Positions 22,150-43,635 of a stretch of 64,000 nucleotides of DNA are shown here, in pieces (the first letter of the stretch is position 1; each line of letters begins with the position of its first letter). The notes beneath the pieces were generated by a model, which ran no database searches, had not been told where the DNA came from, and worked only from the letters and a program-made list of their open reading frames with translations. Where the stretch lies: positions 1,488,001 to 1,552,000 of the forward strand of contig NW_019028981.1 of the NCBI RefSeq assembly GCF_002105155.1. Direction: 5' to 3'. Source of the DNA: Lobosporangium transversale (Eukaryota). A program made the position numbers and the translations under genes.

Positions 22150-22813
22150 ATAACAGTGTATCTTATTTATGCACAATCTTAAATGGGCATAGGAAAAGGA
22201 AGTCGCCGTAGAATAAAGATGTTCTGGTGTTTATTTTGCTCATTGTTTAACAACTATTTCCACAGCAGCAGAGGCCCAAGGTACAGTCACCGTCCAAGCC
22301 GTAGATATGGCTACGTTGATACAAATAACAAGCGTCAAGGCAATCTCGATCATTTATACAAACTCCAGCTATGGTACTGCAGTCTCTACAAACATCAGCA
22401 TTAGCCGCTGCGATGAAGTGGAAGAAGGCCAAGGTAAAAGAGAAACTTTGGATTTTCATCATGATAAAGGGGATTGAAGGCCAGCAAGAGTGCTTGGACG
22501 CTCGGAGATTCTGTTAAGAGCCCTGTAAAAGGTGCTATCATAGGCTATTGTGAGAAAGATCTTGATATAATGATTGTATGAAAGCGCTCTTGTGAGGACT
22601 TTTGCGAGCGATATGTCAGGTCAAGAATCTTATCGAGTTGTAATGTAAGGCATGGTAAATGATCAAAAGTTTGATTATTTCATATTCACGAAACAAATCC
22701 CCTACCTTGGGCTGGGTCATTCCATTTTTGCAATCCTTGCATCCGCGTCACGCTATAATATGTTTAAAAATGAAGCCGGTATGAATAAGGAAAGAAGCAT
22801 TGACCTTTATCAG
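22150..22813. repeat. Diverged direct duplication (defensin-like gene plus about 350 bp upstream), partner about 30500-31143
   Basis: Shared blocks such as TCAGGTCAA, TATATTCA.GAA..AAATCC..ACCTT, GCTATAATA and TGACCTTT.TCAGG. Boundaries approximate. Confidence 0.8.
22247..22462 (-). CDS. Secreted 10-cysteine defensin-like peptide, copy 1
   Basis: Signal peptide ending ANA. Mature part C-x2-C-x6-C-x5-C-x3-C-x14-C-x4-CCC-x3-C. The paralog at 30596-30802 keeps all 10 Cys. Confidence 0.8.
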   Translation of the reverse strand: MMKIQSFSFTLAFFHFIAAANADVCRDCSTIAGVCINDRDCLDACYLYQRSHIYGLDGDCTLGLCCCGNSC

Positions 22814-23399
22814 GGACATGGTAAATACAAGATCTTGTGGAGTACATGTAGTAAATGGGACCTAAAAGAGACAATGGCAAGGAATTTAGCAAATAACCAG
22901 ATTTACTGTATCACAGCGAGGGAAGGCGGAATGGCAAGAGGACCTGACAAGCACAAAGCCTTGTGTAGTAGTAAGTGGCTTTTAAGAGGCCGATATCATA
23001 TTTGTTATTGCTATTATTATTATTATTATAGGAGAAAGTGCTTCATTAAGAATAAGCATTTTCTTTTTATTGCCGGGATGAACTCATATGCCTGAATAAC
23101 GGCTCCTTACAGCATTTGAGGGTGTATACATCCTAACGCCCTTTTTGTAAGCAGAGCAGGGATGTAGAGTTGTTGACACCTTTGAAGTCGGCACTCTTCC
23201 TGCAAAACCGCGAAGATCCATAGCCCCTCTATTCAGGCAGCTCATCAAGTGGGCAGGGGTTATCCTAAAGGAAGACCTGTTCTCAATCTTCTGATGTCAA
23301 GAACCTACTTAATCTTGTCAAGCAAAACAACGGCTATATTTTCCAAGGAATCGCTGTTAAAACTTAAATTTTTAACCAAAGCACAGCTAGACGCATACT

Positions 23400-23990: not shown

Positions 23991-24728
23991 TGTTAGCCAG
24001 GGACTCCACAGCTTGGTTCGGAGTAAGACTACTTACAGTCTCCCAGAGTAAGGCTCCGACCGAAAGAAACTCACAGTAATATGTCTTGGTCTGTAGCAAG
24101 TCGAAATTGGTTTAAAAATTCATAAGAATGGTATAGCTTAAGCATACTAAACTAAGATTGTTTTACTTACAAATTTGTAAAAGAAGAATCGATCTCTCAA
24201 TCATTGTTGCCTCAAGCGCTTAGTAGTTCTAATGGGGAAGCACCTCGCAGTCCTCGTTACTGCCATAGTGGGTTTAGACTTTTCAGGTAGCATTTGAGAT
24301 GACATATATTTCCGGTACCAATCGCATCACGATCAAATACACCGCGGATCTACGGTAGTATTCTAACCGGTAAGACTGATTCTAGGGGGCTGTGCGGTTG
24401 GTGCGGCTGGCATGGTAGCAACGTGCACTGGCCGAATATCTATGAATGCCATCTAGCAATTTGACCTGATACTATTGCTGTTAGAGATAAAGACTTGCGC
24501 CTGCAATCAATCGATTTTTTAAATTCTCGAATGACAACCATTTCTAGATTAGATACAAATTCGGCAACATCCCTCTAGCGAAAAAGGCTGGAAAGGTGTT
24601 TTAATTCTTTTGAGGCTGAATGAAAAATGATAAAGGTTGCTAAATACGCTAAAAGAGTGGAGACAAGTAAATGGCGGACATAGTGCATCATGATGATATA
24701 GCTTGATATATGGCTTTCGCTGTTTTTT

Positions 24729-24774
24729 TACTGATTGATTTCTACTGATTGATTTCTACTAATTGATTTCTACT
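24729..24774. repeat. 14-bp tandem repeat (TACTGATTGATTTC) x3.3
   Basis: Read directly; lies 8 bp outside the 3' end of element A copy 1. Confidence 0.9.
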
Positions 24775-24971
24775 TCCCTGGCATATAGTCCGTCCCATTA
24801 AAAAACGAGACATTCCATCTATTGTAAAAAGAAGAAATGTATTAGAACACAGAAATAAATAAATAAATAAATAAATTAACCAAGAAAAAAAAGTATTATC
24901 AAGCCAATACTTACAATTTTTTTAAGACGGAGGCCTTTCTGGACCTAGTCATGTTTGTAGTAGATTGTGTC
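24760..24971 (-). ncRNA. Candidate Fanzor omega-RNA region (scaffold plus flank-derived guide), copy 1
   Basis: Lies between the stop codon and the element end, and is conserved in a third copy at 29132-29269. Predicted intron 24914-24819. RNA function is inferred only. Confidence 0.45.
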
Positions 24972-27952
24972 CTACTGTTGTTGCCGGCTTGTCTCTCCCC
25001 CTCCTCCTGGACCCAGCAAAGGTCCTTTCGGTGGTCTTGATCCCTCTACTCCTCCTCCTCCTTCATCTGAAAATTTCCTTTTTGTGGGTCTGCTACTACC
25101 ACCACCACTGCCACCACTGCCACCACTACCTCCACCGTCGCCACTACCGCTAGAAGCTTGGCCTTCAGTTCCTCCGTCCGGCGGCATATATTTTGCAGGT
25201 CGTTTTTGCTCTCTTATCTGCGACTCACAGACCCTTGCGATGTTCTCAGCACCAACAGCATCTCGATCAAAGTATGCTTTACAATTTCGACAGTACTTGG
25301 ATCGAAAAGGAACATTCTCCAATATACTGTCGCAGTGAGGCCGTGGACACTTGGCAGATGTGTAGTATTCATGACAACCTGCAATGGGGTAGTCTAGAGA
25401 TTTTGCCTGTTCGAGCCAGATTTAATACTCGTTAAAAAAAAGACTCAAAAATTAAATGTCATTGATCAAAGGATTTTTTTTTACCTTTTCAACAAGCTTC
25501 TTCATCAATATCCCATGCTTCGATACTTGTCCTCGGTTTGTCTTGAATGATCCTAGTCCAATACAGATCATTGCATTCGTATTGGCATCTCTTCTTCTTC
25601 CATTGCTTCCGCCCGCAAGCTTCAGAATTGCCTTGATCACATAATCAACGCATCCGTTCTGTGCTTTTCTATTATCCCAGCTATTCCGAACAAACCATCC
25701 ATCATTATAGAAATCGACAAGCGCCCTATATATAGTCTTCCTATTGTCGCCACTGGTCCCAGATCCATTGCTACTACTCACCTCAACTCCACTGTTACTA
25801 CCGGTCCCTGTTCCACTGCTACTACTGGCCCCAGCTCCACTGCTACTACAGGTCCCAGCTCCACTACCAGAGAAACTACCTCCAGTACTTGATGGAGCTT
25901 GATTTGGCAGCAAGCTCATATAAGCGAAATACTGTGTTAAAGTAGGCCTTGAGAATGACGGAATATTGCTTTCAATCTCTGTAATTCCTTTTCTAAGCTT
26001 TCGCCTCTCTAGCTCGCCCTGAAACTTCTTGGATGGTTTGTAAAGGCACGCTCTAGAAATCCGGAGGATCTCACGTTCGTTAGGTTTCCTTGGATCCAAC
26101 TTTGCAATTTTCATCGAGTACCTCTCGCCTGGATCGGTCCCAATGATAATGGTACTTTCGGGGGGAGGGCATGCTGCCTGGGTGTCATATTTAACTTCTA
26201 CATTCTCGAGGAGACGGGATCTCTGCTTCCAGTTGATCTCACGCCGGGGACTGGGACTCACCGGGAACAGTGGATTTGTGCTCGATGTACCTTCTTCAGC
26301 TGCTTTTTCTCCCTCGTCGCCATCTAAGAATGGTTCATCAACTTCCAGCAAGTCAATATCGCTGATACCTAGCAAGATATCGTCATCTTCATTTCCGTCG
26401 TCGTCTCCATCATCACCACCATCACCTGCACCATGGCCTGAAGACGAGGATCCCTGCTGAGCACTTGAAGAAGCCTGGACTGCTTAAGATCTTTGAGTAT
26501 CCGAAGGTTGGGCAGCTTGCGAACCTCTACCTCTTTTTTGCTTCGATGTGTCATAGGCAAGAAGTGTTAGGGTAAGGCCGTTTGTAAAGAACGATGTCCG
26601 TAGTTTCCTTCTAGGACCATCATCAGATTGCAGTCCAACGTCCTTGCATCCTTTCAAGGAAAACAGCTCCTGCAACAATATCCCCTTGTGGTTAAGGATC
26701 TTGTCCTCTGCAGCCCCCTTGGTACTCATGTTTAGTCCCAACAATTGGACTATTTCCTCTCGAACTGTTGGGTTAGACCATAATACTCATGAAGACTTTC
26801 GCATGGCTCCATTGTCCGCTTGGGGGGCCTCATTGTATCGTTTATTGATTGATTGATGTGATATAGTGATGATAATATTCGTCATATGATTGAGGCAATC
26901 TGAGTTGATTCGTTCTACAGCCTGACTAACTTGATCTTTTCTGTACAGCTCGACGAGACTTGATTTGTCGCATCATTTGCTTACTCGTCTTCTTGCGTTC
27001 CCTTGATGTATTTGGGTTGATAAACACTGCTAATAGAGTTTGTTGGGCCTGTTGAACCCAGAGGGAACCACAGCAACATATCATACCCAAGGTGATACAA
27101 ATATCTCTGTTGGAGTGAGTGGTGAACTGTGTGTGGTTCAGATGTAGTGGACATAAACGGCGAAAGAATGCATCGAATGGATGTGAGCGGTTATGAGAGC
27201 AAGGAAGAAGGGGTTGGTATGCCTGTTCAAGTCCTTGGCAAGAGAGCGTGAGTAGCAGTTGTGATCAATGGTATAGTTTCTAGACCCTATCTTCCACGTA
27301 CAGCATTGCATTATTGTTGTTTTCAGACCTGGCATCAATCATGCAAGGTATTTCTTTTTCTGAGGGTTCCTTGTGTCAAACGGCCAGACAGAAAGCTTAG
27401 AAGAGATACAGACACAACGGTGAAAAAAATGTATGCGAGCAAACAGTTGCTGTGTTTATTTGTTGTCTGCACATGCCTTCTTTCATCGCGGGCTTTGTTC
27501 CGAAAATATTTGGCAAATCTTTTTCCTTTTTTGTTCGTCAACCACTGTGTGCACGAATAACTTTTGTTTCTGTACATGCATAAAGCAGAAGAAATGAACA
27601 AACTTTATTTTGGCGATCACTCCATAATCAAAAATACTCCTAGGAGAGGATCAAACGCGTCGGTATTAATCTCGCTTCTGCTCTCCCTCCTTCCACAAGG
27701 CGCTGCACAATATCACCATTAACAGGGCGTCGTCTAGTAAGGAAAGGTACTTAGATAGTTCTTACTACAAGCAATAAGCGCATGCAACTACATCACCCCT
27801 ATCTCCACCATTGATGCCGGAACCCGAGAGCTAACGAATATCTCTGCTTTAACGCAAAAGTGCTGGAGCTGTTGGAGCAAAGAGCATCATATGAAGCCAT
27901 TCTCTGATAAGAAAGACTTTTTTTTTCTTTTGTTGTTACCTTTGACAAGGAT
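24783..27952 (-). mobile_element. Fanzor-carrying element A, copy 1 (3170 bp; inverted copy of 35489-38658)
   Basis: Every ORF is mirrored with identical translation (coordinates sum to 63441). Identity stops sharply at ATCCTTGTC (5') and GGACTATAT (3'). Confidence 0.85.
24972..26780 (-). pseudogene. 5'-truncated Fanzor/TnpB-like RuvC nuclease, family A, copy 1
   Basis: IIIGTDPG (RuvC-I), ICIGLG, CHEYYTS (RuvC-II Glu), CPRPHC/CRNC Zn finger and FDRDAVGAENI (RuvC-III). Intron 25484-25407; in-frame TAA at 26486-26484. Confidence 0.88.
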
Positions 27953-28778
27953 GTAACCACCTGTTTCAAATCAGTTCCTACAGACCGAGTCAAATCTACC
28001 CATGTATTCACCACAGGAGCACAAAGATATAACTTTGTGTAGAGAATCCTCATGCATATTCTGCAGTCGATTGCTCTCTATTAAAGCTCTCTATTTTTAT
28101 TGTTCGATGAGCTTTTCTTGCCAGAGAACAATGGAGTGAAAAAAAAAAAAAAAAAAAAAAAAAAACAGACTTCCTTACGTCCCCCCTCGGTATGTGTATC
28201 TGTCTGAACACGTCCCAACTGACATCCTCTCGACAATCCTTCCAAGACTGCAGTGCTTGAATGTGTACAGGGAACAAAAGAGGTCTAGATACAGGCTCTC
28301 TTTGTGACATTGAAGGAGATCGCATGTTTCATGGCTATCGAGACAAGGTACTCCTACAGGCACAAGACAAAGGTATAACTCGGTTCAAACTCAAAGGAAC
28401 GATTTTACCAATGGCCTTGTTTTGAATCCACTTGCCTATGACACAGTCCAGACGAAGAGACAGCAGCAGTTTGACGTAGATGAAGAAGATCTTAGCCAGG
28501 AATGGAAAATTTCTCAAGGATTCCTTAACACGGCGTGTTTTAAAGGCAGCCGGTGAAGGCCTGATAGATGAAGACTACGCAAACATAAGCTGGAAGAGGG
28601 GCCCCAAACTTCTTGAAAACGTTGGACTCATATTCCATGAGCCAGGGCGATGCTCATCTGCAAATACCACAACTACCGTCTAATGCGATCCTGGTATTGT
28701 TAATGCCCTTACGTTTTCTTCACTAGACCATCAAAACCCTGACCTGCGTCAAACGGTGAAGGTGAGAAGTAGGCTCGT
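27953..28778 (+). pseudogene. Decayed internal fragment (B') of the PIN-Fanzor gene family B
   Basis: Nucleotide similarity to the reverse complement of about 32960-32135, e.g. GGTATGTGTATCTGTCTGAACACG, GATGAAGACTACGCAAACATAA and GATCCTGGTATTGTTAA. Multiple frameshifts and stops; 5' limit approximate. Confidence 0.85.
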
Positions 28779-29131
28779 CAACAGCCTGTGTGGCTTATAT
28801 GCGTTGCACCAATGCTCACTGACAGGTTGAGTCCAAACTCGAGATACCAAAATAGCCTTCGTTGAATCCATGGGGAGGAAAGACACCAAGCCGGCAACAA
28901 CAATAGGATATGATCATTTGCATATTTCACAGTACACGTGTTACATGAAAATTTATAATACAGACATACTAACAGCTCTTTGTCCCATGGTGTGGTACCC
29001 GAGACAAACTTGTAGTTTTATTTTGATACAAATTTGGATAAATGCCCCATGGATGTGATGTGTGAACCCACATCCTATTCTCACTTACTTCTGCTCCCTG
29101 GTTACTGCTTGTCTGTCTAAAATTTTTCATG

Positions 29132-29269
29132 ATCTACTACAAACATGACTAGGTCCGGAAAGGCTTTCGTCTTAAAAAAGTTGTAAGTATTAGCTTGACA
29201 GTGCTTTCTTGATTGATCTATTTATTTCTATGCTTGGTCTAGATGGTGTTTTTTGATGGGGAGGACTAT
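29132..29269 (+). repeat. Solo diverged copy of the family A 3' terminal region
   Basis: ATCTACTACAAACATGACTAGGTCC...CGTCTTAAAAAA.TTGTAAGTATT...AGATGG...GGACTAT aligns to 38476-38656 and stops at essentially the same end. Confidence 0.85.
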
Positions 29270-30595
29270 TTAGACAACATATAGACCCCACATATCTTAA
29301 TCTATAATGAATTGGTTTGGTGGTATTGTTTTAAAAAATAGGTATATCTTCGCTTAAGGGACAGAAAGATAGACACAAGCAGGAAAAGGCAGGACAAAGG
29401 GTGTCAACAAGATTAACAAGAGAAAATAGAGTCAAATAACCTTGACTACAAACAGCACCATAGAATGTCAAAAGATGGGAGCTTTATAGGTGAGCTCACA
29501 AACTGAGTTACCGGAAGACAAATGCTTGTTGTGAAAAGGGGAAAAAGATAAATGGCAAAATGAACTGCAGGTGAAGAATAAGACATATGGGGAAAACTGA
29601 AGACTTTATTAAGAAGGAAGTTTCTTTGGCTTTTATACTCGGTAGTTTCTAGGTGAGGCGGACTCGCCTATGACTACAAAGGCTTTGGCAAAAATTCCTG
29701 TAAGCTGGTTCGACAGATTAGTGGATACAAAATAAACTGAAAATAATTTTAATGACCAGCCACACCACTTGCAATAACAAGCGAGTCAATTGGCCGCCAA
29801 TACATTTAAGAGTATTCAAAAAATATAAGGGATCGCGATCAAATGGAACGGGCTAAACAATAGAGCACAGAGAACTGAATGTGACCCGCCCGTGACTTGA
29901 TGAAAGCTAAATGGACAAATTTGCCCGTTTTACAGCCCAAGGAATAAATGAGGCGATTAAATCCAAAGAAGTACCAAAGCCTTGGCCCTTGTACCACTGG
30001 CTCGTGTTCTTTTTTTGAATGCATAGATGGATTGGACTCATGAACAATTTAGAAGAAGTCCATCGATTATATCATATATTAACACTGCTACTAAAAAAGA
30101 AAGGACAACTTTTAAGTATTTTGTATTGTATTGTCCTTTATTTGTCTGTAGTTGGAAGTGACCTGCTTCACAAACCACCAAAAGATCAAGATATCTTCCT
30201 ATTCAGTCAGTCCCTAACTTTCCAACAATAATACAGCACAAAGTAGGCTGCGTCATTTTTGTACGGATTTTTAATTCAGGGAAGCACAAGTATTCGGCCA
30301 CATTGTTAATTGTGCAAATGGACCACAAAAGCATGCCAAGTGTTGATAAAAAGAGGATAGTGGTGCTTCGTACGCACCATTGTGACCGGTAGTGGACCCA
30401 GTATTAGTTGCACTTGTAAGGTAAAAAGGGCTTTGAGTCTTGCTGGTGTTCATTCTAGGGTTGGAAGAGACAAAGCATTGCTAATTGTATATATTTGTTC
30501 ACAATAGCACTGTTCTTTTATTGGCTAGCTTAATGGACAGTCCTAAATAAGAAGGAAATGGGTTGGCACAGAATAACGTGGATAGTGTGTATTGC

Positions 30596-30802
30596 TTAAC
30601 AATCGGCTCCACAACAGCATTGGCCCCAGTCGCAATCGCCATCGTAGGCGTATTTGGGACTACGAGTAGTGCAAGCGTTCCAGCAATCTTTATCGTTTAT
30701 GCACAATCCGCTTGTGATGGTGCATCTTCTACAAACGAAAGCATTGGCTACTGCAATGAAGCTGAAGAAGATCAAAGCAAAAGAAAAGCTTTGGATTTTC
30801 AT
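30596..30802 (-). CDS. Secreted 10-cysteine defensin-like peptide, copy 2
   Basis: MKIQSFSFALIFFSFIAVANA signal peptide; same Cys framework as 22247-22462, including CxxxC and GDC...CCC. Confidence 0.8.
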   Translation of the reverse strand: MKIQSFSFALIFFSFIAVANAFVCRRCTITSGLCINDKDCWNACTTRSPKYAYDGDCDWGQCCCGADC

Positions 30803-31131
30803 GATATTGATGACTAGCTAGGTTGCTTGGAGTCTCAGAGGTTCCGAAGTTTCTGTCAAAAGTTGTTGCGGCTCTTGTGAAAGTTTTTGTTGCGATGACT
30901 GTGTGCAAAGACTCTTATGAGGCCTTTCGTGGGTATTGTATCAGGTCAAAAGTCTTGAAGGAGGCTCGTTGAGTGGTAATATAGCGCACGATAAGTGGTC
31001 AAAGGTTTGACTTATTTATATATTCATGAAGTAAATCCTATACCTTAGGCAAAGTCGGTCCACCTATACGTCTACGTTATGCTATAATAAGCTTAAAAAG
31101 GAGGTTGGAATGAATGAGGAAAGGATAGCTG

Positions 31132-31169
31132 ACCTTTTTCAGGAGCACCTTTTTCAGGAGTACCTTTTC
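31132..31169. repeat. 15-bp tandem repeat (ACCTTTTTCAGGAGY) x2.5 at the junction of the defensin-like promoter and the 3' side of gene B
   Basis: Read directly; similarity to the paralogous promoter (about 22800-22813) ends here. Confidence 0.85.
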
Positions 31170-31401
31170 CATTTGAAGTCTGGCAAGCATAAAGATTTGT
31201 TGTGGTAACAAAGGGGATCTAGAAGTGATATTAAGGAGAAATAGGGAGGATTTGGTGGTATCTGTTGATCTGTACGGTTTTTAAAGTTAGTCCAGAAATT
31301 CGGGGGCAAAAGATTAGAGAGGATGGATACAGGAGACGAAAATAAACAGAACTTACAAATTTTTTGTAGGTGTGCCGGCACCCAAATACTTGTGTCTAGC
31401 G

Positions 31402-34400
31402 TCATGCGCGCTTTGCAGCCGGAGCAGGCGACTCTTCCGTGGGCTTGTACTTTGCAGGTCTCTCTTGTCTCTCAATTTGAGCAAGACCGGTTCTTGCGAT
31501 GTTTTCCGCCCCTACTGCGTCACAGTCGAGGAATACCTTACATGTCCTGCAATATTTAGAGCGAGGGTACACCGTCTCTAAAAAGCTATCGCAGAGGGGT
31601 CGGGGACAGCAGGCGCTGGTGTAAAATTCGTGCGCTCCTACAGCGAAGTGTCCTCGTGCTTTGACCTAAGCGTTTCAAATGGCAGTCGTTTATTAGCAAG
31701 GGTTTTATGGCTTTCCAGCTTTGCTTACTTTTTTAAAAACAGCCATACCTGTGTGACAAGATGTCTCGTTATAGCAGTGTGCTTGCTGGGAACTCCTTTA
31801 CTACTTTCAAAGGACCCTAGGCCGACGAGTACTCCTTTATCCCCAAGCATCTTCAACACTCACTGTACCGCGTAGTCGAACGTAGCTCGTTGAGCCTTTC
31901 GTAGGTCCCATTTTTTTTTCAGGTGCCATCTGGACTCGTAGAACTCTTGAAGCACATCCAAATTCGTTGATCCTGTCTGTGTCTGAGACTCCTCGTTCAT
32001 CCATTGAAAGTACTCATTGTACGTATCCCTTCCAAACACAGGGATGGCGCTCTCAACCTCAATCATTCCTTTTTCACGCTTCCTTTTGTTCAACAGGTGA
32101 TTGAAGCGGAGGACGGGGAGGTACAAGAACCTGCTTCTCACCTTTACCGTTTGCCGCAAGTTAGGGTTGTGAGGGTCCAGCGCGGAAAACGTAAGGGCGT
32201 TAACAATACCAGGATCACATCCGACGATAGTTGTGGTGTTTGCGGATGGGCATCGCCCTGGTTCGTTGAATGTGAGCTCAACGTTTTCAAGCAGCTTGGA
32301 GCTCCTCTTCCAGTTTATGTTTGCGTAGTCTTCATCTGTTAGGTCTTCACCGGCCGCCTTTGAACACGTCGTGTTGAGAAATCCCTGAGAAAGCTCCAGT
32401 TCTTGGCTGGGGTCTTCTTCGTCTGGGTTGTGTCATAGGCAAGTAGATTCAGAACTAGACCGTTGGTAGAAATCGTTCCTTTGAGTTTGAACCGAGTTAG
32501 ATCTTTGTCCTGTGACTGCAGGGATACTTTGTCTTGATATCCACGAACCATGCGATCACCTCCAATGTCACAAAAGAGAGCCTGTATCAAAACCCCTTTT
32601 GTTCCCTGTACACACTCATACATTGCAGTCTTGGAAGCATTATTGAGAGGCAGAATACGCTCCAGCAGCTGCTTGGTATCTTCGTTCGCCCAGAGGATGT
32701 CAACTAGGGCGTGTTCAGACAGATACACATACCCGAGTGACCAGGGGGACGTAGGAAAGTCTGAGTATTTTTTCACTTTTTTGTTCTCCCGCAAAAAAAA
32801 CTCAATGTCGCTCATATCTTCGTTTGTTTTCTCGACATCAAACTAAAAAAAAAAAAAAAAAAAAAAAAAGGTGTGAATAAAGAGCATTTGATTGCAGAAT
32901 ATGCATGAAAATACCCCTACACAAGCTATACCATTGCGTTCCTGTAGTGCTGCCTTAATGATGTCTGTACTTGGCCCATTAGTAAGTCTGACGCTCTTGG
33001 AAATGTGATCTTTTTGGGATCAAAGCCTTGGACGTCCCCCAATGTGATGTCTATATCCTTTATTGGGGAAAGTTCAGTGGTGGCCTTGAAATGTTCATAA
33101 GCGAGGTGATGATGGGGCGTTTCTACCGCCTTTCCTTGTTTTTTTGCCCTCGCGTAAGCTGAATTGGGTCCACCTTGACCACTCAAAAGAAGGGTGGCGA
33201 GACGGAAGGAATAATCATTGCTATCCAAGACCTCGTCCAGTGCCTTTTTCCTCGACTTTGCTGCCCCTGGTAACCGCATGATCCTCTCAATGTCCAAGGC
33301 AATCGCCCAGTATGCATAGCGGCGTAGTCGGTTGAGGACAACAACTGCCCCTCGGATCTGGCTTGCAATACTATCCCTTTCATCTGCGTCCAGTCCGCCT
33401 TTCCTTGCCATGGAGGCCTTAAGGGACCCAATTGTTAAGGCCTTGATAGGGTGCTTACTGCTGTAGCTGTGATCAACCTTCGTAGCATCCTTCAAGTTCC
33501 TAATTGGTGCACCTTCTTTTTTAGCCCTGTGGGGCTTCTTGCCTTTGTGCTTCCGCTTTTGTTTTTTCTGTTGCTCCTTTTTTGCCTTTCTCCGACGTGG
33601 TGGATGCTTAAGGCCCGGCCTATCGTGCTGACGGCAGTTACTGATATCAACTGTGCGCCCATTCAATATGCTCGCCTTGTCAGAAAAGATGGGCCGGAAC
33701 TGGTTCTTATGTGACCCTTCCGCTATATAGAATGATGGTACGCCTCTACATTATTCAAGAAAGGGACTAACGATTAGTATTGGGGACGTCTGGTTTCAAG
33801 GCCAAAAACTATAGCTTGAGCTTTCTTACGTTCTGCGGCGCTGCGCTCGCCTTTGCTGAGCCATTCTATGGCGAAGATCCTTTCCATTGAGTAGACGCTG
33901 CTTGAAGTTATCGAACTCATTGTTCGATGGTAACGCTTGGGCCGACGTTTGATGGCCGGAAGTAAAAATGCGGAGAGCTACACTGAAACGGCCTTCCTCA
34001 GAGGCTACGTTCCTTCCCAACACCTTACTAGCTTCCCTTAGGCAGCCCTGAAGCATTTTATTATAGTTCTCGTTCCACTCAACCTTTCGAATTAATCGAA
34101 GATTAGTAATCGGGCCTGACGTCTCGAGGTTCCTTGAGTAGTCATTGCCTGCGATGGCACAGAATAACACCAGATGCGCGTGTGTTGGCAGTCTTAGTGC
34201 TTGGATAACGTTGTCTACGTCGTAAACCCCAAACTTCCGTCTACGGTGCGGAAGGGGTCGCACTAGGAAGCAGACTCGTTCGTACGCAAAAAAATCAGAG
34301 TCTTGGGATATCACGATCCTATCATTCTCCTCATCATGGCATCCTATGCATGGGTCCGCTTCATATGCACACAGACAGACATCGAAGACAGAACTAAGAC

Positions 34401-34866
34401 CTGTTGCCAGCTGATCCTTGTCCTGGACGCTCAGGGTGTGGACTTCTCGAAGACCCTTCTGGATGCGCCTCACGACTTGAGGACGAGTCCATACCCCACT
34501 CCGAGAATTTCTCTCGAAGGTGCTCATATTGTTCTCCAAAGCGTCCATATTTTTTTGTCTTATGGCTTGCCGTTCTGTCCTTGCTTTTTCTTTCTCAGTA
34601 CAAGGTTCCCCATCAATATGTATAGTCAGGTTGTCCGTTGTGAGAAGATCCTTTATCTCGAGTGCCAGGGACCTTCCTACATCAATGATGGTTTCGTTTT
34701 TCATCTTTGCATGGACGACTCTGCGGAGGATGTCGTAATAGAACGTACCGAGGAGATCTAAATGAACAGAATGGTCAGGATTTGCCGCCAAGAAAGTGCC
34801 CACGCCAGTTTCCGAAGGTAAAACCCCGCGACCCGCAACCAGTTTGAAGAAGGACTTCAGCCCCAT
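31402..34866 (-). pseudogene. FEN1/XPG-like PIN nuclease fused to Fanzor-type RuvC (family B), 4 coding exons, about 1078 aa when repaired
   Basis: Exons 34866-33830, 33745-32932, 32842-31749 and 31665-31402 join in frame through GT-AG introns. PIN motifs: MGLKSF, VHLD, IDG..K..R, YEAD, SQDSD, GNDY. RuvC motifs: VGCDPG, LVGLG, AHEFYTS, CPRPLC/CRTC, DCDAVGAENI. Lesions: 28-nt deletion near 32415 and TGA at 31862-31860. Confidence 0.88.
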
Positions 34867-35126
34867 GGTCAATATCTAAGCGAAAAGAGAAAGAAAAAAA
34901 GGAAAAATGGTGGTGATGAAAAGAAATGAAAAAGAAAAAAAAAAGAGCGACAAAAGTATAAAAGGATGAGCTTTTTTATGGTGTAAAGATTCAAAGCGAA
35001 TAGATAAAGAATATTGAGGGAAAGATACAGGAACAAGTGGCAGTGGTAAAAGGGATGGAACTTTGAAGGAGGAAGACAATGATCCCTTTTTATATCCTGG
35101 ATTGATGATGAGTTTTATCATTGTCT

Positions 35127-35356
35127 CATATAGTTTTGATATCGATCCTTTGCTTCACAGGCCACATCAATCTTTATTCAGTTCCTTTGTTTGGATTGGG
35201 GTTTTGTCCCAGTCAATAGCAGAGATTGACAAATAAATACAAGCTCTCGCATGAACGGCAGATTGGAAACAATAGCATTAAGATACCAAAGTGAGCATTC
35301 GAAAAAATCATCTCCATATACAGCATATAGTGTCGATGTCGATCCTTTGTTACACA
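35127..35356. repeat. Imperfect 33-bp direct repeat pair upstream of gene B (35127-35159 and 35324-35356)
   Basis: CATATAGTTTTGATATCGATCCTTTGCTTCACA vs CATATAGTGTCGATGTCGATCCTTTGTTACACA, 28/33 identical by hand count. Confidence 0.8.
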
Positions 35357-35488
35357 ATTTTTTTTTTTTTTTTTTTTCAGTTTCTTTTGTTTGCACTGGC
35401 TCTCGTTTTGTGCTTTGTGAGGAATTTAATGAATAAAAGAATATTTATAATTTTGAACAGGGGTAATAAATGCACTGACAGATATTAT

Positions 35489-38400
35489 ATCCTTGTCAAA
35501 GGTAACAACAAAAGAAAAAAAAAGTCTTTCTTATCAGAGAATGGCTTCATATGATGCTCTTTGCTCCAACAGCTCCAGCACTTTTGCGTTAAAGCAGAGA
35601 TATTCGTTAGCTCTCGGGTTCCGGCATCAATGGTGGAGATAGGGGTGATGTAGTTGCATGCGCTTATTGCTTGTAGTAAGAACTATCTAAGTACCTTTCC
35701 TTACTAGACGACGCCCTGTTAATGGTGATATTGTGCAGCGCCTTGTGGAAGGAGGGAGAGCAGAAGCGAGATTAATACCGACGCGTTTGATCCTCTCCTA
35801 GGAGTATTTTTGATTATGGAGTGATCGCCAAAATAAAGTTTGTTCATTTCTTCTGCTTTATGCATGTACAGAAACAAAAGTTATTCGTGCACACAGTGGT
35901 TGACGAACAAAAAAGGAAAAAGATTTGCCAAATATTTTCGGAACAAAGCCCGCGATGAAAGAAGGCATGTGCAGACAACAAATAAACACAGCAACTGTTT
36001 GCTCGCATACATTTTTTTCACCGTTGTGTCTGTATCTCTTCTAAGCTTTCTGTCTGGCCGTTTGACACAAGGAACCCTCAGAAAAAGAAATACCTTGCAT
36101 GATTGATGCCAGGTCTGAAAACAACAATAATGCAATGCTGTACGTGGAAGATAGGGTCTAGAAACTATACCATTGATCACAACTGCTACTCACGCTCTCT
36201 TGCCAAGGACTTGAACAGGCATACCAACCCCTTCTTCCTTGCTCTCATAACCGCTCACATCCATTCGATGCATTCTTTCGCCGTTTATGTCCACTACATC
36301 TGAACCACACACAGTTCACCACTCACTCCAACAGAGATATTTGTATCACCTTGGGTATGATATGTTGCTGTGGTTCCCTCTGGGTTCAACAGGCCCAACA
36401 AACTCTATTAGCAGTGTTTATCAACCCAAATACATCAAGGGAACGCAAGAAGACGAGTAAGCAAATGATGCGACAAATCAAGTCTCGTCGAGCTGTACAG
36501 AAAAGATCAAGTTAGTCAGGCTGTAGAACGAATCAACTCAGATTGCCTCAATCATATGACGAATATTATCATCACTATATCACATCAATCAATCAATAAA
36601 CGATACAATGAGGCCCCCCAAGCGGACAATGGAGCCATGCGAAAGTCTTCATGAGTATTATGGTCTAACCCAACAGTTCGAGAGGAAATAGTCCAATTGT
36701 TGGGACTAAACATGAGTACCAAGGGGGCTGCAGAGGACAAGATCCTTAACCACAAGGGGATATTGTTGCAGGAGCTGTTTTCCTTGAAAGGATGCAAGGA
36801 CGTTGGACTGCAATCTGATGATGGTCCTAGAAGGAAACTACGGACATCGTTCTTTACAAACGGCCTTACCCTAACACTTCTTGCCTATGACACATCGAAG
36901 CAAAAAAGAGGTAGAGGTTCGCAAGCTGCCCAACCTTCGGATACTCAAAGATCTTAAGCAGTCCAGGCTTCTTCAAGTGCTCAGCAGGGATCCTCGTCTT
37001 CAGGCCATGGTGCAGGTGATGGTGGTGATGATGGAGACGACGACGGAAATGAAGATGACGATATCTTGCTAGGTATCAGCGATATTGACTTGCTGGAAGT
37101 TGATGAACCATTCTTAGATGGCGACGAGGGAGAAAAAGCAGCTGAAGAAGGTACATCGAGCACAAATCCACTGTTCCCGGTGAGTCCCAGTCCCCGGCGT
37201 GAGATCAACTGGAAGCAGAGATCCCGTCTCCTCGAGAATGTAGAAGTTAAATATGACACCCAGGCAGCATGCCCTCCCCCCGAAAGTACCATTATCATTG
37301 GGACCGATCCAGGCGAGAGGTACTCGATGAAAATTGCAAAGTTGGATCCAAGGAAACCTAACGAACGTGAGATCCTCCGGATTTCTAGAGCGTGCCTTTA
37401 CAAACCATCCAAGAAGTTTCAGGGCGAGCTAGAGAGGCGAAAGCTTAGAAAAGGAATTACAGAGATTGAAAGCAATATTCCGTCATTCTCAAGGCCTACT
37501 TTAACACAGTATTTCGCTTATATGAGCTTGCTGCCAAATCAAGCTCCATCAAGTACTGGAGGTAGTTTCTCTGGTAGTGGAGCTGGGACCTGTAGTAGCA
37601 GTGGAGCTGGGGCCAGTAGTAGCAGTGGAACAGGGACCGGTAGTAACAGTGGAGTTGAGGTGAGTAGTAGCAATGGATCTGGGACCAGTGGCGACAATAG
37701 GAAGACTATATATAGGGCGCTTGTCGATTTCTATAATGATGGATGGTTTGTTCGGAATAGCTGGGATAATAGAAAAGCACAGAACGGATGCGTTGATTAT
37801 GTGATCAAGGCAATTCTGAAGCTTGCGGGCGGAAGCAATGGAAGAAGAAGAGATGCCAATACGAATGCAATGATCTGTATTGGACTAGGATCATTCAAGA
37901 CAAACCGAGGACAAGTATCGAAGCATGGGATATTGATGAAGAAGCTTGTTGAAAAGGTAAAAAAAAATCCTTTGATCAATGACATTTAATTTTTGAGTCT
38001 TTTTTTTAACGAGTATTAAATCTGGCTCGAACAGGCAAAATCTCTAGACTACCCCATTGCAGGTTGTCATGAATACTACACATCTGCCAAGTGTCCACGG
38101 CCTCACTGCGACAGTATATTGGAGAATGTTCCTTTTCGATCCAAGTACTGTCGAAATTGTAAAGCATACTTTGATCGAGATGCTGTTGGTGCTGAGAACA
38201 TCGCAAGGGTCTGTGAGTCGCAGATAAGAGAGCAAAAACGACCTGCAAAATATATGCCGCCGGACGGAGGAACTGAAGGCCAAGCTTCTAGCGGTAGTGG
38301 CGACGGTGGAGGTAGTGGTGGCAGTGGTGGCAGTGGTGGTGGTAGTAGCAGACCCACAAAAAGGAAATTTTCAGATGAAGGAGGAGGAGGAGTAGAGGGA

Positions 38401-38658
38401 TCAAGACCACCGAAAGGACCTTTGCTGGGTCCAGGAGGAGGGGGAGAGACAAGCCGGCAACAACAGTAGGACACAATCTACTACAAACATGACTAGGTCC
38501 AGAAAGGCCTCCGTCTTAAAAAAATTGTAAGTATTGGCTTGATAATACTTTTTTTTCTTGGTTAATTTATTTATTTATTTATTTATTTCTGTGTTCTAAT
38601 ACATTTCTTCTTTTTACAATAGATGGAATGTCTCGTTTTTTAATGGGACGGACTATAT
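35489..38658 (+). mobile_element. Fanzor-carrying element A, copy 2 (3170 bp)
   Basis: Reverse complement of 24783-27952 with no indel offset; different flanks on both sides. Confidence 0.85.
36661..38469 (+). pseudogene. 5'-truncated Fanzor/TnpB-like RuvC nuclease, family A, copy 2
   Basis: TNGLTLTLLAYDT, INWKQRSRLLENVE, GTDPG, CHEYYTS, Zn finger and DRDAVGAENI. Intron 37957-38034 is at the same position as intron 3 of gene B. In-frame TAA at 36955-36957. Confidence 0.88.
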
Positions 38659-38680
38659 ACTGACGTCCTAGTAACATTTC
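38470..38680 (+). ncRNA. Candidate Fanzor omega-RNA region, copy 2
   Basis: Conserved non-coding 3' end with predicted intron 38527-38622. UCCGUCUU (38510-38517) is complementary to GGGACGGA (38645-38652). Confidence 0.45.
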
Positions 38681-39166
38681 ACAGATCCAATTCAATAAAA
38701 AGATACGATGTCGCTACATCATAATCTCAGCGCGCATACAAAATAGCATGAGACACAACTTGATAGTTCATCAATCACTATCATTGCTGCCCATATGATC
38801 AATTTGATCAGAGCTTGCATCCAAACAGTCTTCGGTAGAAACAGCACAGTCTTATAGAAACATTATATAATGGTATCAGCCTTTGGTACTTTTGCTACCC
38901 TTACAACCTTTTCCCCATGGTCTCTTTAATATTTAAAATTAAAAGCAGAGAGAGGAGAGGAAAAAAAAGAAAATTGTGACGATAAAAAACTAAAAAAAAA
39001 AAAAAAAAAAGAAAAGAAAAAAAGAAAAGAAAAGAAAAAGAAAAAAAAAGATAACGATTATAATAACAATTACATCTTGAAGAAAAAAAAAAAATAAATG
39101 CATGTGAATCTGTATACGCCTTTGTATGAAAATATGTGTCAATGACTGCAGCACGAGTAATCTTGT

Positions 39167-42100
39167 CTATCGCTTCCATGAACGCTCGTCTTGGTCATCT
39201 TCACTCTCGTATCCTGCTTCGGCTGCTGTTGTAACAGCACCGCCTGGTGCTGTTGCTGCTGGTGTTATGTTTGCACCGCTAGTAGTCCCAAAGCCTGGGG
39301 ATTTGAAAGTAGATGTTGATGTTGCTACTGGTGTCGTCTGAGGCTCAGAGATCCATCCAAGTTTTAACGGACTAGTAGCGTTAGGCACTTGGCTGCCATG
39401 TTGCATCGCCTTTTCAGCCTCCACGCGGGTCTTGTACTGAACAGTTGCTGATGTGCCATCAGCCCCCAATGTAAAAGATTCAATTTCGCCAAACGCCTAT
39501 AATGGGTGTGAGAAATTATTTATAAACAACCATTGTAATTCAACTCGCCACATCCCAATAGTGTCTCTGGAGAAAAAGTAATAGTGTCAAAGATATTCAC
39601 CTCAAAATGCTCTTTAAGGCCTTCCTTAGAAGCCTCTTCGATGTTACTAACAGACAGCTTTGTAGATCGATTATCAATCCTAAATGTACGGTTGTGGGAT
39701 CCACCTCGCGTCCAAGTATTTGAGGGTGCTCCCCGACCGCGGCCACGTGGGAGGAAGCCACCACGACCTCTACTAGCATATCCTCCTTGATTTTCCAGAC
39801 CTAATGCAGCAGCCTAGTAAAAAAAAAAAAAAAAAAAAAAGTTACTATTAAGTTGATTTTATGATAGGTGTATATAATTCAAGAGCTGACCATATACCTG
39901 GGCTTGTAGTGCTGCAAGTTTCGCCTTCAACGCGGCCGTGGTCTCTGTCGCATCTGAGCTGGATTCAGATGCAGCTGAGTTGGTTGTCGTAGAAGCAGTG
40001 GGTTTGGCATTCAGGGCCTCCAGCTCTCGATCAAGTCTTTCTCTTTCCTTCTTTTCGGCTTCTTTCTGAAGCTCGGCTTGTCGCTGTGCCTCAGCAGCAG
40101 CAGCAGCAGCGCGAGCCTTCTCCAGAGGATCCACAGGTTCTTTAGTGACTTCAATCGCTACATTCTTCAATCCCTTCAAAATTTCATTCTTGTCCTCCTC
40201 AGACATATTCTTGTTTGCAATGATTTTTGCCAATAACACCTTTTGCTCTTCTTGCTGGCGTTGGATGAGTGCTTCCCTCTGGCGTTGAATCTCCATCATT
40301 GCCTTTTTGTTCTCATCCGCTTTAGCTGCTTTTGCTGCACGCTCTGCTGCTAACTCTGCAGCGCGCTCTGGGGTCATAAGGACGCTAGTTGGGGGCGCTT
40401 TGGATGCTGCATGCTGGCCATGATGGGATGTATGACTTGCGCTAGCATTTGTCTCAGGTCGAACTTGCCCTGCAGGTTTAGGCTGACGCCCAAAGGTTGC
40501 TGAATCTAGATCATCAGGCTGCCAATAGACTTTAACAAAACGGTTTCCAAATATCACATCTGGAGAATTATATGCAGCACTAGCCTCTTCCCGTGTGCTA
40601 TACTGAATCAGAGCCTTATGCATTGGCTGATCAACCTGAATATTGGTCAGATTTCCAAACCGTTTGAAAAACTCGTTCACTTTGTCAATTGTGTTAAACT
40701 CATCAGGGATATGCTCCACTACAAGTGATGTTTTGGTTGTTGCTGTATTTGATGCACCATTGAAACGCCCAGGAGTAGAATAGGGGTGCGAGCCACTACT
40801 TCGACCACGACCACGCATGCCTCTCAGACTGCCACGACCACGTATATTTCCACGACCCGATGCTTCTTGGTTGTAGCGAGCTCCCTCTTGTGTGCCTTGC
40901 TGTGGAGGCTCAAGAGCTGGTCTCAAAAGACCCAAATCATCTGTGGATAGTGATGAAACTTCAGGGTTGTATGCATCTGATGGGTTAGGTATAGGCGCAT
41001 TATGGAGTGGATCAGGAAAGAATGGAGGATGGCCGCCTCCCACACTCATTTGATTATTGGGCCCTATACCTGGAGCCATTCCAAGGATATTGAAAGGTCC
41101 TCCAGGCATATCACCAACAACGATCCTATCTTCGCCATGATCATACGGACACATATCTCCCCGCATACAGTATCCCTTTTCTAGAAACAAGAAATAGAAG
41201 CAAGAATAATGTTAATAAAGAAATAAAATCAAAATACTAATCCTAATGATCGTACATATATATATCACTACAATGCGATATATTACAAATAACGTACCAT
41301 CATAGTCGCGACACCTTTGGCGTCTCCTCTCCTGCCCAAATCCCGGCCCTCCTTGAGCACTACCTCGTCCTCCACGCATGTTGTCGCCTCCCCGCCACGG
41401 CCCTTGGTTCTGCTCTTGGAAAGTGCCACGGGGACCATTATCGAAATTTCCACGAGGACCATTGTCAAAGTTGCCTCGATTGTACTGCTGTCCGTTCCAT
41501 TGTTGGCGCTCGGCATTATGATTAAAGCCGGGTTGATTATTATTGTTATTCATTCCATTAAAGTTATTACGGCTATTGAACCCTGCGGTTGTCAAGCCAT
41601 GCTGTCTTATGCTGCGATCTCCACCACGACGATCATAATCGGAGTGTCCATTAGGATTCCCTCCATCGCTTGAACGACCACGTCTTGTGCTATACCGATC
41701 ATCGTCGCTTGGACGAGAGGGACTGTATTCTCGGCGTCGGCGATCAGAGTCGCGGCCATCATCACGGCGAGCATGCTTAAAACTCCGATCCTCGTCATCC
41801 GAGACGTCACTGTCTCCACGATGGTGCTTTTCAGGACCACGTGAAGACGGGATCTCATAATTGTCACGGTCAGCAGCAGGCCCAGTAGGGATGTATTCAT
41901 CGTCATAAATGGCAGCTCCACCTGGTAAAGCTGAGGAAGTAGCTGTAGTGCCTTTTGATGGTGATGTGGCTTCTGCCAATGCTGTGGTTCCTCGGATGTA
42001 TGATTTGGACTCCAACACCTGGAAGAGTGAAGTTACAAAGCGTTCCGTTTCTGATAAGATTTAATTGCAATAAGAACGCGAAGAAGGTCCGTCAAAATCA

Positions 42101-42467
42101 TGCTACTAGTTCGGGGTATATCTGCAGCGTGTAGCCTCTACAACATTCATAATCTAAGACCTGAACAAGTAGCTTACCATTGGTCAAAAAATCCTCAAGT
42201 TGTGAGATACACAGAGCCTGAAGCTCAGCATTATTCTTATCATGCTTAAGAAGAGCAATAATGTAGTCCGCCAACATGGAAGGATCAGCGTCCGAGCTAA
42301 GATTTAATCATTGATAACGTAAAAACCGATTAGCCATTTGACAAAGAGGATTGCAATGAAAAAGAGTGCCCATGGCAGCTTTGGGATGAGTGTCTAGCAT
42401 ACATAAGGGTCAGCTCCTTAGTAAGGTGGGCCTTCAAATCATCGTGAGCGGCATCGTCGAGATGCAT
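39167..42467 (-). CDS. RBM26/RBM27-like RNA-binding protein (PWI, CCCH zinc finger, two RRMs), multi-exon
   Basis: SDADPSMLADYIIALLKHDK (PWI), RCRDYD/EKGYCMRGDMCPYDHG (CCCH), LVVEHIP...FKRFG...IFGNRFVKVYW (RRM); ends ERSWKR. Confidence 0.92.
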
Positions 42468-43635
42468 GATTGTGTTCTAGGATTCTTTTGGAAATTAGGT
42501 TGTGAAGATCTTCGTTCGGTCGCGTAGCCCTGCAGTTGTTTTTCCTTAAAACTACGGTTAAGAGATCAACTGTTTCCGACGAGAGTCTGACAATTTGCAA
42601 TGTTGAAGAGTGGTGTTTCTCTAAGTACAGTCAGCGATGAAAAAGAATGATCGCTGAGCTCACGAAGGTACTAGCAGAGAAGACAGAATTGATGTCAAAA
42701 TGAAAACAAGACAAAAAATGTAGGAGAAATGTAACCACACACTTCACTGGCAATAGATGCATATCATTGTCCATAGTCAAGCCACTCTATCACATGATCA
42801 ATTGCGTTATTTCCTTGGAATAATCTTCCAATAAAGAATCATTATTTCCGTAAAGCCTAGGGTCTCTGGGCACACTCGTCTTGAGCATAAAAATTAGAGT
42901 TCGAGGGTGACTGGAGCACGTCCATAATTGAAATATGGATTCTTTTTTTACTGAATCGCCACAGCTTAATTCCGGGTAGCGGCCCTATGGAGACTAGTAG
43001 GTAGTCTTTCTTTATGCGATCCATATGCGCGAAAGTGTGTCGAATCGCATCAATACTCCAAACCTTGGACTTTAGTGAAGCTCACTTTGAACTCACTATC
43101 CGAAGCTTTTCTAAAGGACGGTGTCCTTGGGGGCTTAGGATTATCACCCTAGGAAAGTACTCGAAAAATATGCTTAATCCTGGATGGATGAAATTATCAT
43201 GACGTCCAATTCCTTGTATTGGGATATGTAGTCAGGAGATAGCCCTCAAAGCTTTTGAAATCTTCCCAGGCCGCCCCATAGCCAAAGCCATTTCGATGAA
43301 TGTAGCCCATCCACATCACTCTTTGACTTGAAAAATAAGCTGCGCTTTCAGTTTCCTTACTTTTCACTAAAGAAATAAGAGGAACAATAAACCCCTGTTT
43401 GGCAACGAAAATCTGTATTCATCATCTTACATTCAGTATTATCGTTCGCCACGTAATGAAGCTCTTGGATGGCAAAAAGGATAAAAAAAATCTCGTTCTA
43501 GGTCACTATATGCCAAGATGAGTTGATGCTTGCGATAGTCTCGGAATTAGCGAATTTTGATCGTGCTTACAAACACAAGAAGATATTCATATATTCAAAT
43601 AGGCATTTGAATTCGAGGATATGAGTCTGAAAACG

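Follow-up and report, generated by a model that had tools for sequence, protein, structure and literature searches.

The window, by which we mean the whole 64,000-nt stretch of DNA analyzed here, carries several Fanzor1-type elements, whose best protein matches are to Lobosporangium transversale (98% over the last exon). The DNA is fungal, and these matches suggest Mortierellaceae. Two inverted copies of one family (A) enclose one decayed A-like end, referred to as solo, and one element of a second family (B), as identified by self-BLAST (Table 1). In these elements a conserved segment lies between stop codon and right end and is followed by variable flank. The right end of the plus-strand A copy is at 38657 or 38658. 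The end of family B at 31259 was set by contigs of a sequencing run (X1, see below) that carry other flanks; contigs with other flanks also occur at 31268. Solo represents a decayed element's 3' end and carries about 220 bp of inserted sequence behind the stop codon. Family C is represented by a decayed 3' end with a weak protein remnant (E 0.08), for which no element end could be placed.

Table 1. Coordinates of the Fanzor1-type elements and their parts in the window
Feature	Position	Strand	Basis
Family A element, 5'-truncated Fanzor1-type copy	35485-38658	+	self-BLAST, tblastn
Family A inverted twin	24783-27956	-	1 mismatch versus plus copy in 3174 bp
Fanzor1-type coding remnant of A (WED-RuvC-zinc finger); coding intron 37957-38034, nonsense TAA 36955-36957	36655-38469	+	
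Catalytic residues of A remnant	D 37306, E 38071, D 38179	+	motif reading
Predicted SL1 hairpin; 5-bp core 38495-38499/38506-38510, 6-nt loop, 3 outer pairs	38491-38515	+	fold, covariation
A-rich linker segment between SL1 and intron 1 donor	38516-38526	+	alignment, fold
Intron 1, U2-type spliceosomal, 96 nt; GTAAGT...CTAAT (38596-38600)...AATAG	38527-38622	+	sequence and X1 junction
Last exon inside family A element: predicted SL2, inner hairpin, ends UA	38623-38657	+	fold
Flank, putative guide	38658-38672	+	copies differ from 38659; contigs with other flanks behind 38658
Intron of family A mirror copy	24819-24914	-	identical to plus-copy intron
Decayed A-like 3' end (solo), 60-nt intron 29183-29242	29132-29270	+	sequence
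Family B 3' end: SL1, linker, intron 31356-31270, 11-nt last exon, end 31259	31259-31404	-	
FEN1/XPG-like first exon of family B gene	33830-34866	-	joint 33745/33830 in X1, in frame
Decayed fourth 3' end (family C)	24091-24204	-	donor 24170, candidate acceptor 24091

Overall, five Fanzor-type 3' ends lie within 15 kb (24000-38700; donors at 24170, 24914, 29183, 31356, and 38527). The two A copies form a near-perfect inverted repeat around 7.5 kb. The whole arrangement could reflect an insertion hot spot, a composite element, or an assembly effect. In the family C region (24030-24420, minus strand), 24074 and 24036 are also donor-like and 23936 is a candidate acceptor, so that this is possibly a two-intron end. 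Some high-depth X1 contigs contain only the last ~90 bases of family B (31259-31349) joined to other sequence, and others contain family B with internal deletions, likewise joined to other sequence; both appear to be short non-autonomous derivatives. A repeated noncoding stretch with high contig depth and loose ends (29370-29900) is likely another mobile element. Two diverged paralogous stretches (22329-22814 and 30672-31143, 67% identity) contain, by eye, short minus-strand open reading frames with signal peptides and cysteines.

A Helitron1 host element was considered and rejected. The definition of its ends that we used is 5'-TC, CTRR-3', and insertion between A and T, as given in PMC3627910, and this combination was not found. 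With a slash marking the border, the A copies fit A/TC and /T, yet they end in CTATA, and the flanks of B and of two related loci described below (L002 and L003) begin with C, C, and A, respectively. A self-targeting search with three 15-nt flanks returned no second match within the window at three or fewer mismatches.

The family A coding remnant retains several Fanzor motifs. At RuvC-I it reads GTDPGE, which includes the DPG motif described as a Fanzor feature (PMC10711439). The alternative catalytic glutamate, six residues before the zinc finger (HEYYTSAKC), and the RuvC-III RD (within DRD) are likewise described as Fanzor features in PMC13565253. At the place of the WED TDG motif both A and B have TNG (assigned by eye). 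The catalytic motifs are conserved across the protein family. A profile built from 104 proteins matched SpuFz1 with an E value of 3.1e-9 over 243 positions; its matches to Fanzor2 and TnpB/Cas12f were confined to a zinc-finger region of ~65 positions, with E values of at least 5e-8. By these profile comparisons, the family is closer to Fanzor1 than to Fanzor2 or TnpB.

The same profile matched FEN1, XPG, and EXO1 with E values down to 1.7e-14. Full-length members of the family (about 1000-1500 aa; P0049, P0088, P0115, P0134, and P0146) are fusions of a FEN1/XPG-like nuclease with Fanzor1, and the FEN-like exon of family B joins the next exon in frame, the intervening intron being skipped in X1. 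The FEN-like part is a possible transposition or repair module. Both A proteins in the window are broken (5'-truncated, with the nonsense codon at 36955), with no intact REC-WED-RuvC-TNB frame found, which means that other copies would have to supply any activity. The coding region of family B has one stop and frameshifts. The broken frames lower the case for an active copy in the window, not that for the origin of the family.

An earlier note on this DNA had predicted a spliceosomal intron after the stop codon and before the right end of family A, inside a putative omega-RNA, and had placed splice signals in A, its mirror copy, solo, and B. All of these lie where it put them, and the intron does occupy the omega-RNA position. 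The family B intron is 87 nt long with a branch-like CTAAC; a CTRAY branch match is absent from the solo intron. GT-AG ends together with a branch-site motif are present in A, B, and the related loci L002, L003, L004, L010, and L014. The pattern A-rich...TT/GTRAGY has eight matches in 235,098 bases (the window plus 16 loci, both strands), all of them at these element ends.

Evidence from RNA comes from one run (X1), compared as assembled contigs over positions 28000-42500; its status as RNA was a guess. X1 skips five other GT-AG introns, four of the neighboring host gene and one of family B, and one host-gene contig has 0 differences over 1284 bases. Because host introns are skipped and the host contig is free of differences, X1 behaves as RNA of this organism. 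The intron at 38527-38622 is real and spliceosomal, and the predicted splice is present in RNA: one X1 contig carries the exact junction from 38526 to 38623, with 34 nt on the shorter side and a depth of 241.5, which is not a splicing fraction. This contig could stem from any family A copy and marks a long RNA rather than a small one bound by protein. Two X1 contigs continue past 38658 into flanks unlike those of the window, so that transcripts of other copies read into their own flanks. No spliced junction of the family B 3' end was found among the contigs listed (which covered 8 of 15 pieces and 6 of 10 loose ends), only unspliced forms, in a data set that shows presence, not absence, and for an 11-nt last exon that is hard to place. 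Elsewhere in family B, one contig skips 141 bases with GT..AG ends on the opposite strand (31901-32041, plus strand; depth 199.7), which may be an antisense spliced RNA or a deleted copy.

Two other accounts of the introns were rejected. An IStron-like self-splicing group I intron would span the element; the introns here are 60-106 nt long with GT-AG ends. Rfam gave no match at E ≤ 1 in 28000-39500. A trigger for nonsense-mediated decay, which follows a 50-55 nt rule for the distance from stop to junction, gains no support from the distances of 26-78 nt, which fall on both sides of that rule.

Metagenome sequences indicate that the donor position is conserved far beyond the window. A scan returned 55 pattern matches, which gave 16 loci; L015 (an unrelated, weak match) and L012 (whose contig ends before the stop) were dropped, leaving 14. 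The sequences are not independent: L002 and L003 are 94% identical, A and solo are related, and nine of the 16 loci come from one assembly. Stops of solo, L007, L009, L014, and L016, whose frames are broken or run on, were placed by eye. A GTRAGY donor occurs within 80 nt of the stop in 9/14 loci, against a chance of 5.5% for each. It is at the homologous TT/GTAAGT position in six (L002, L003, L004, L006, L010, and L014), as in window A, solo, and B, in line with the earlier expectation that other copies keep the splice signals. The five loci with no donor within 80 nt are L005, L007, L008, L009, and L011; L005 has a decayed TT/GT at the homologous position. A scan of viral contigs gave 46 pattern matches, of which 0 were confirmed.

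The number of introns varies. L001 and L013 precisely lack intron 1; each has a donor beyond that site, by 14 and 3 nt, respectively. Since L001 is missing intron 1 and keeps its coding intron, its DNA reads as the predicted spliced junction. A second intron is present in L002, L003, and L004, where micro-exons of 6, 6, and 12 nt, respectively, precede a 7-nt last exon. Either intron can thus be absent across family members. The L001 and L006 contigs end before their acceptors, and no acceptor was placed for intron 2 of L013. In addition, L016 (4280-4440) contains a divergent Fanzor remnant with a single intron, 78% like intron 1 of L004, after a longer exon; with its donor in another context, it was left out of the folds.

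The spliced A RNA is predicted to fold into a hairpin (SL1), an A-rich linker, and a second stem (SL2) that starts at the splice junction and is closed by the terminal UA next to the putative guide. SL1 was predicted upstream of the junction in 12/12 selected ends, with 4-8 pairs; Fanzor1 SL1 has about seven. Over these 12 ends, which are not fully independent, the combined z score is -3.78 (mean of 76 control windows, -0.10), and SL1 alone reached z ≤ -1.99 in just 3/12 windows. In an unfitted alignment of 11 sequences 79% of SL1 cells are paired and 5/5 pairs have changed on both sides. A score as high was obtained in 0/500 shuffles (relatedness ignored), and the score is above those of all six slid controls. 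A covariance model of SL1, linker, and donor recovered its training ends and two close copies of them; its one match outside the training families was weak, the family C end (24165-24204, E about 0.09). Exons and hairpin are conserved around introns whose interiors have diverged and have little in common between families.

In family A, the predicted base of SL2 has five bases on each strand: one strand consists of the final base of exon 1 plus the four that open exon 2, the other of the element's five terminal bases. In the same register there are five pairs in A, L002, and L003, four in B, seven in L004, and three followed by a break in L010 and L014; solo has U-U at the terminal pair and then five pairs. 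The third pair changes from U-A to C-G in L010 and L014, whose ends were chosen by the SL2 pairing itself, so that this case is circular. The fourth changes from G-U to C-G in B, whose end was set independently. L002 and L003 part directly after CTATA, which fixes their end independently as well. Intron 1 falls where the linker meets SL2, and intron 2 interrupts the SL2 loop, such that in L002-L004 the two SL2 strands are split between the micro-exon and the 7-nt last exon. From SL1 to the end, the predicted spliced scaffold of A measures 71 nt and that of B 45 nt.

In A without flank, the SL2 base has a probability of 0.83 in the spliced versus 0.01 in the unspliced RNA, and the spliced model has a z score of -2.58 (3/300 shuffles as stable), compared with -1.05 unspliced. 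The other seven of the eight spliced models are no more stable than shuffles (z -0.89 to +0.23). When the flank of the plus copy is included, the probabilities in the A fold fall, that of the SL2 base to 0.33 and that of SL1 to 0.02. For L002 and L003 the homologous SL2 register has a probability of 0.11, and another register across both junctions is favored. In 7/8 spliced models there is, by prediction, a stem of 3-7 pairs from the terminal base at the scaffold end beside the guide. We conclude that the conserved cross-junction pairing is probably a short stem, U/AUGG with the terminal CUAUA. It may be that the scaffold has taken up a target-site duplication as its terminal TA, which has been described for Fanzor1 (PMC10711439).

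This architecture resembles that of characterized Fanzor1 systems. The omega-RNA of SpuFz1 (Spizellomyces punctatus) is described as SL1, a 6-nt linker contacting RuvC, and a stem 2 with a protein-bound base and a dispensable distal part (PMC10432273), and that of PpFz1 (Parasitella parasitica) as a 7-pair SL1 and a 4-pair SL2 (PMC11423790). Like these, the scaffold modeled here is encoded between stop codon and right end and consists of SL1, a short linker, and a single SL2 with its base against the guide. Its terminal UA would pair with the first SL2 bases as in SpuFz1, and family B has four predicted SL2 pairs as in PpFz1. In contrast, no intron is described in the main text of either study, whereas here the scaffold sequence is distributed among two or three exons, and an N-terminal FEN1/XPG-like domain is present in the protein family. 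By eye, the yeast-defined PpFz1 omega-RNA (PMC11423790 Table S3, LN731931) has a donor-like CAG/GTAAGC about 12 nt after its first hairpin, the place of intron 1 here; this may be chance or an unnoticed intron.

Other systems combine splicing with Fanzor or TnpB RNAs in different ways. The Chlamydomonas Cre-1 Fanzor (HERMES) also has a small RNA, which comes from a spliced mRNA's 3' UTR (10.1101/2023.06.13.544871). However, its four described introns are in the pre-mRNA of a multi-exon coding region, and the small RNA, within which no intron is reported, is described as starting about 100 bp downstream of the last exon. IStrons (IS605/IS607 elements with a group I intron and a TnpB omega-RNA) have splicing signals and omega-RNA together at the right end (10.1101/2023.11.20.567912). 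They differ in using a group I mechanism, whereas the introns described here are short, spliceosomal, and internal to the scaffold, which would come into being through splicing. In the literature covered by our search, which took in few subscription journals, we found no report of a spliceosomal intron inside an omega-RNA or of a FEN/XPG-Fanzor fusion.

The leading alternative, which we consider unlikely, is an ordinary 3'-UTR intron whose splicing is optional, with unspliced RNA also being loaded and the intron looped out or accommodated in a dispensable distal SL2. Intron-retaining contigs do occur in X1, a solo-like contig among them. Moreover, the retained donor U/GUA can pair with the terminal UAUA, with four pairs in A and L002-L004 and three in B, L010, and L014; SpuFz1 SL2 likewise starts with U-A and G-U pairs and can lose its distal part (PMC10432273), and GtFz1 is described as tolerating extra stems between SL1 and the guide (PMC11423790). 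However, the donor-end pairing has a probability of only 0.0001 in unspliced A, and the divergence of the intron interiors argues against this alternative, as does the protein contact described at the linker/SL2 junction of SpuFz1 (PMC10432273).

The earlier note had also proposed a stem across the intron. Pairing across the junction is predicted, but the UCCGUCUU/GGGACGGA stem that it named is probably not the conserved one. The 8-bp complement (38510-38517/38645-38652) exists, with 8/8 pairs in A and 7/8 kept in solo even though solo has lost 7 nt of A's inner SL2 hairpin, which speaks for the stem within family A, and X1 indels at 38623-38632 fall outside it. Yet it is confined to family A: B, L002, and L003 cannot accommodate it, and what corresponds to it extends over no more than 1 bp in B, 2 bp in L002/L003, 4 bp in L004, and 4-5 bp across L004, L010, and L014. 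The covariation expected of it did not appear, A and solo having no change on both sides. Its mean pair probability is 0.09 in spliced RNA without flank and 0.63 and 0.33 with the two copies' own flanks, so that it is favored with that of the plus copy (0.63). It also breaks the outer SL1 pairs, and Fanzor1 scaffolds are described as ending in a plain stem rather than a pseudoknot (PMC10711439). The 8-bp stem is thus probably a family A-specific alternative, and it is very unlikely that it is functional there, possibly as a pseudoknot with the SL2 base.

It is also highly improbable that the region is just a spliced 3' UTR with a DNA end signal and that these elements produce no working guide RNA. 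The copies in the window are indeed pseudogenes. Nonetheless, the catalytic motifs are conserved in the family, and the two strands of SL2, which belong to different exons and can be separated by about 200 nt of DNA, keep G-U pairs, which argues for structure at the RNA level.

To a last alternative, in which the spliceosome cuts rather than joins and so sets an RNA end, we give almost no weight: the donor beside SL1 is strong and conserved and fission-yeast telomerase RNA offers a precedent, but ligated exons are present in X1 and a cut at the donor would part SL1 from the guide. That telomerase RNA (TER1) undergoes first-step spliceosomal cleavage without ligation, and fission-yeast U6 snRNA and some fungal snoRNAs contain introns. 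All are cases of the spliceosome acting on structured noncoding RNA, as proposed here; they differ in being host RNAs rather than the guide of a transposon nuclease, and TER1 also in the absence of ligation.

We therefore return to the reading in which a spliced 3'-end intron and its joined exons form the omega-RNA scaffold, which we regard as probable. Since the joined exons are predicted to form such a scaffold, the guide is likely cut from spliced Pol II Fanzor mRNA. Specifically, Pol II (an origin suggested by splicing) would transcribe the Fanzor gene through its right end, and the spliceosome would take out one or two 3'-UTR introns. The joined exons would fold into SL1, linker, and SL2, the latter across the junction, with the guide supplied by the adjoining flank. 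Another copy could provide an intact FEN-like-Fanzor1 protein that would then bind the scaffold, and trimming could yield a small RNA of about 45-71 nt of scaffold plus a ~15-nt guide. The earlier suggestion that splicing assembles the guide scaffold is thus likely. The introns are most likely inherited 3'-UTR introns whose removal is needed for a compact fold, and a regulatory role of splicing, the licensing raised in the earlier note, is possible. More tentatively, and with less than even confidence, we propose that splicing is obligatory in a fungal FEN-like-Fanzor1 lineage. As many as three exons would contribute to the scaffold, among them a micro-exon of 6 nt and a terminal exon of 7 nt, and only spliced RNA would arm the nuclease, so that splicing would give the host or the element a switch for RNA-guided DNA cutting.

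According to the IStron preprint (10.1101/2023.11.20.567912), whether Fanzors process their own precursor is still to be determined. An intron inside the scaffold is a built-in tracer of guide origin: finding the junction in a small RNA bound by the protein would prove that the guide derives from a Pol II transcript that has been spliced. Published omega-RNAs were defined by folding the genomic 3' end or by expression in budding yeast (PMC10432273, PMC11423790), and the proposed arrangement, if true, would explain misses by either route. It would also predict that natural scaffolds can be very small, with about 45 nt for family B, and would identify the right RNA for the FEN-like-Fanzor1 fusion family.
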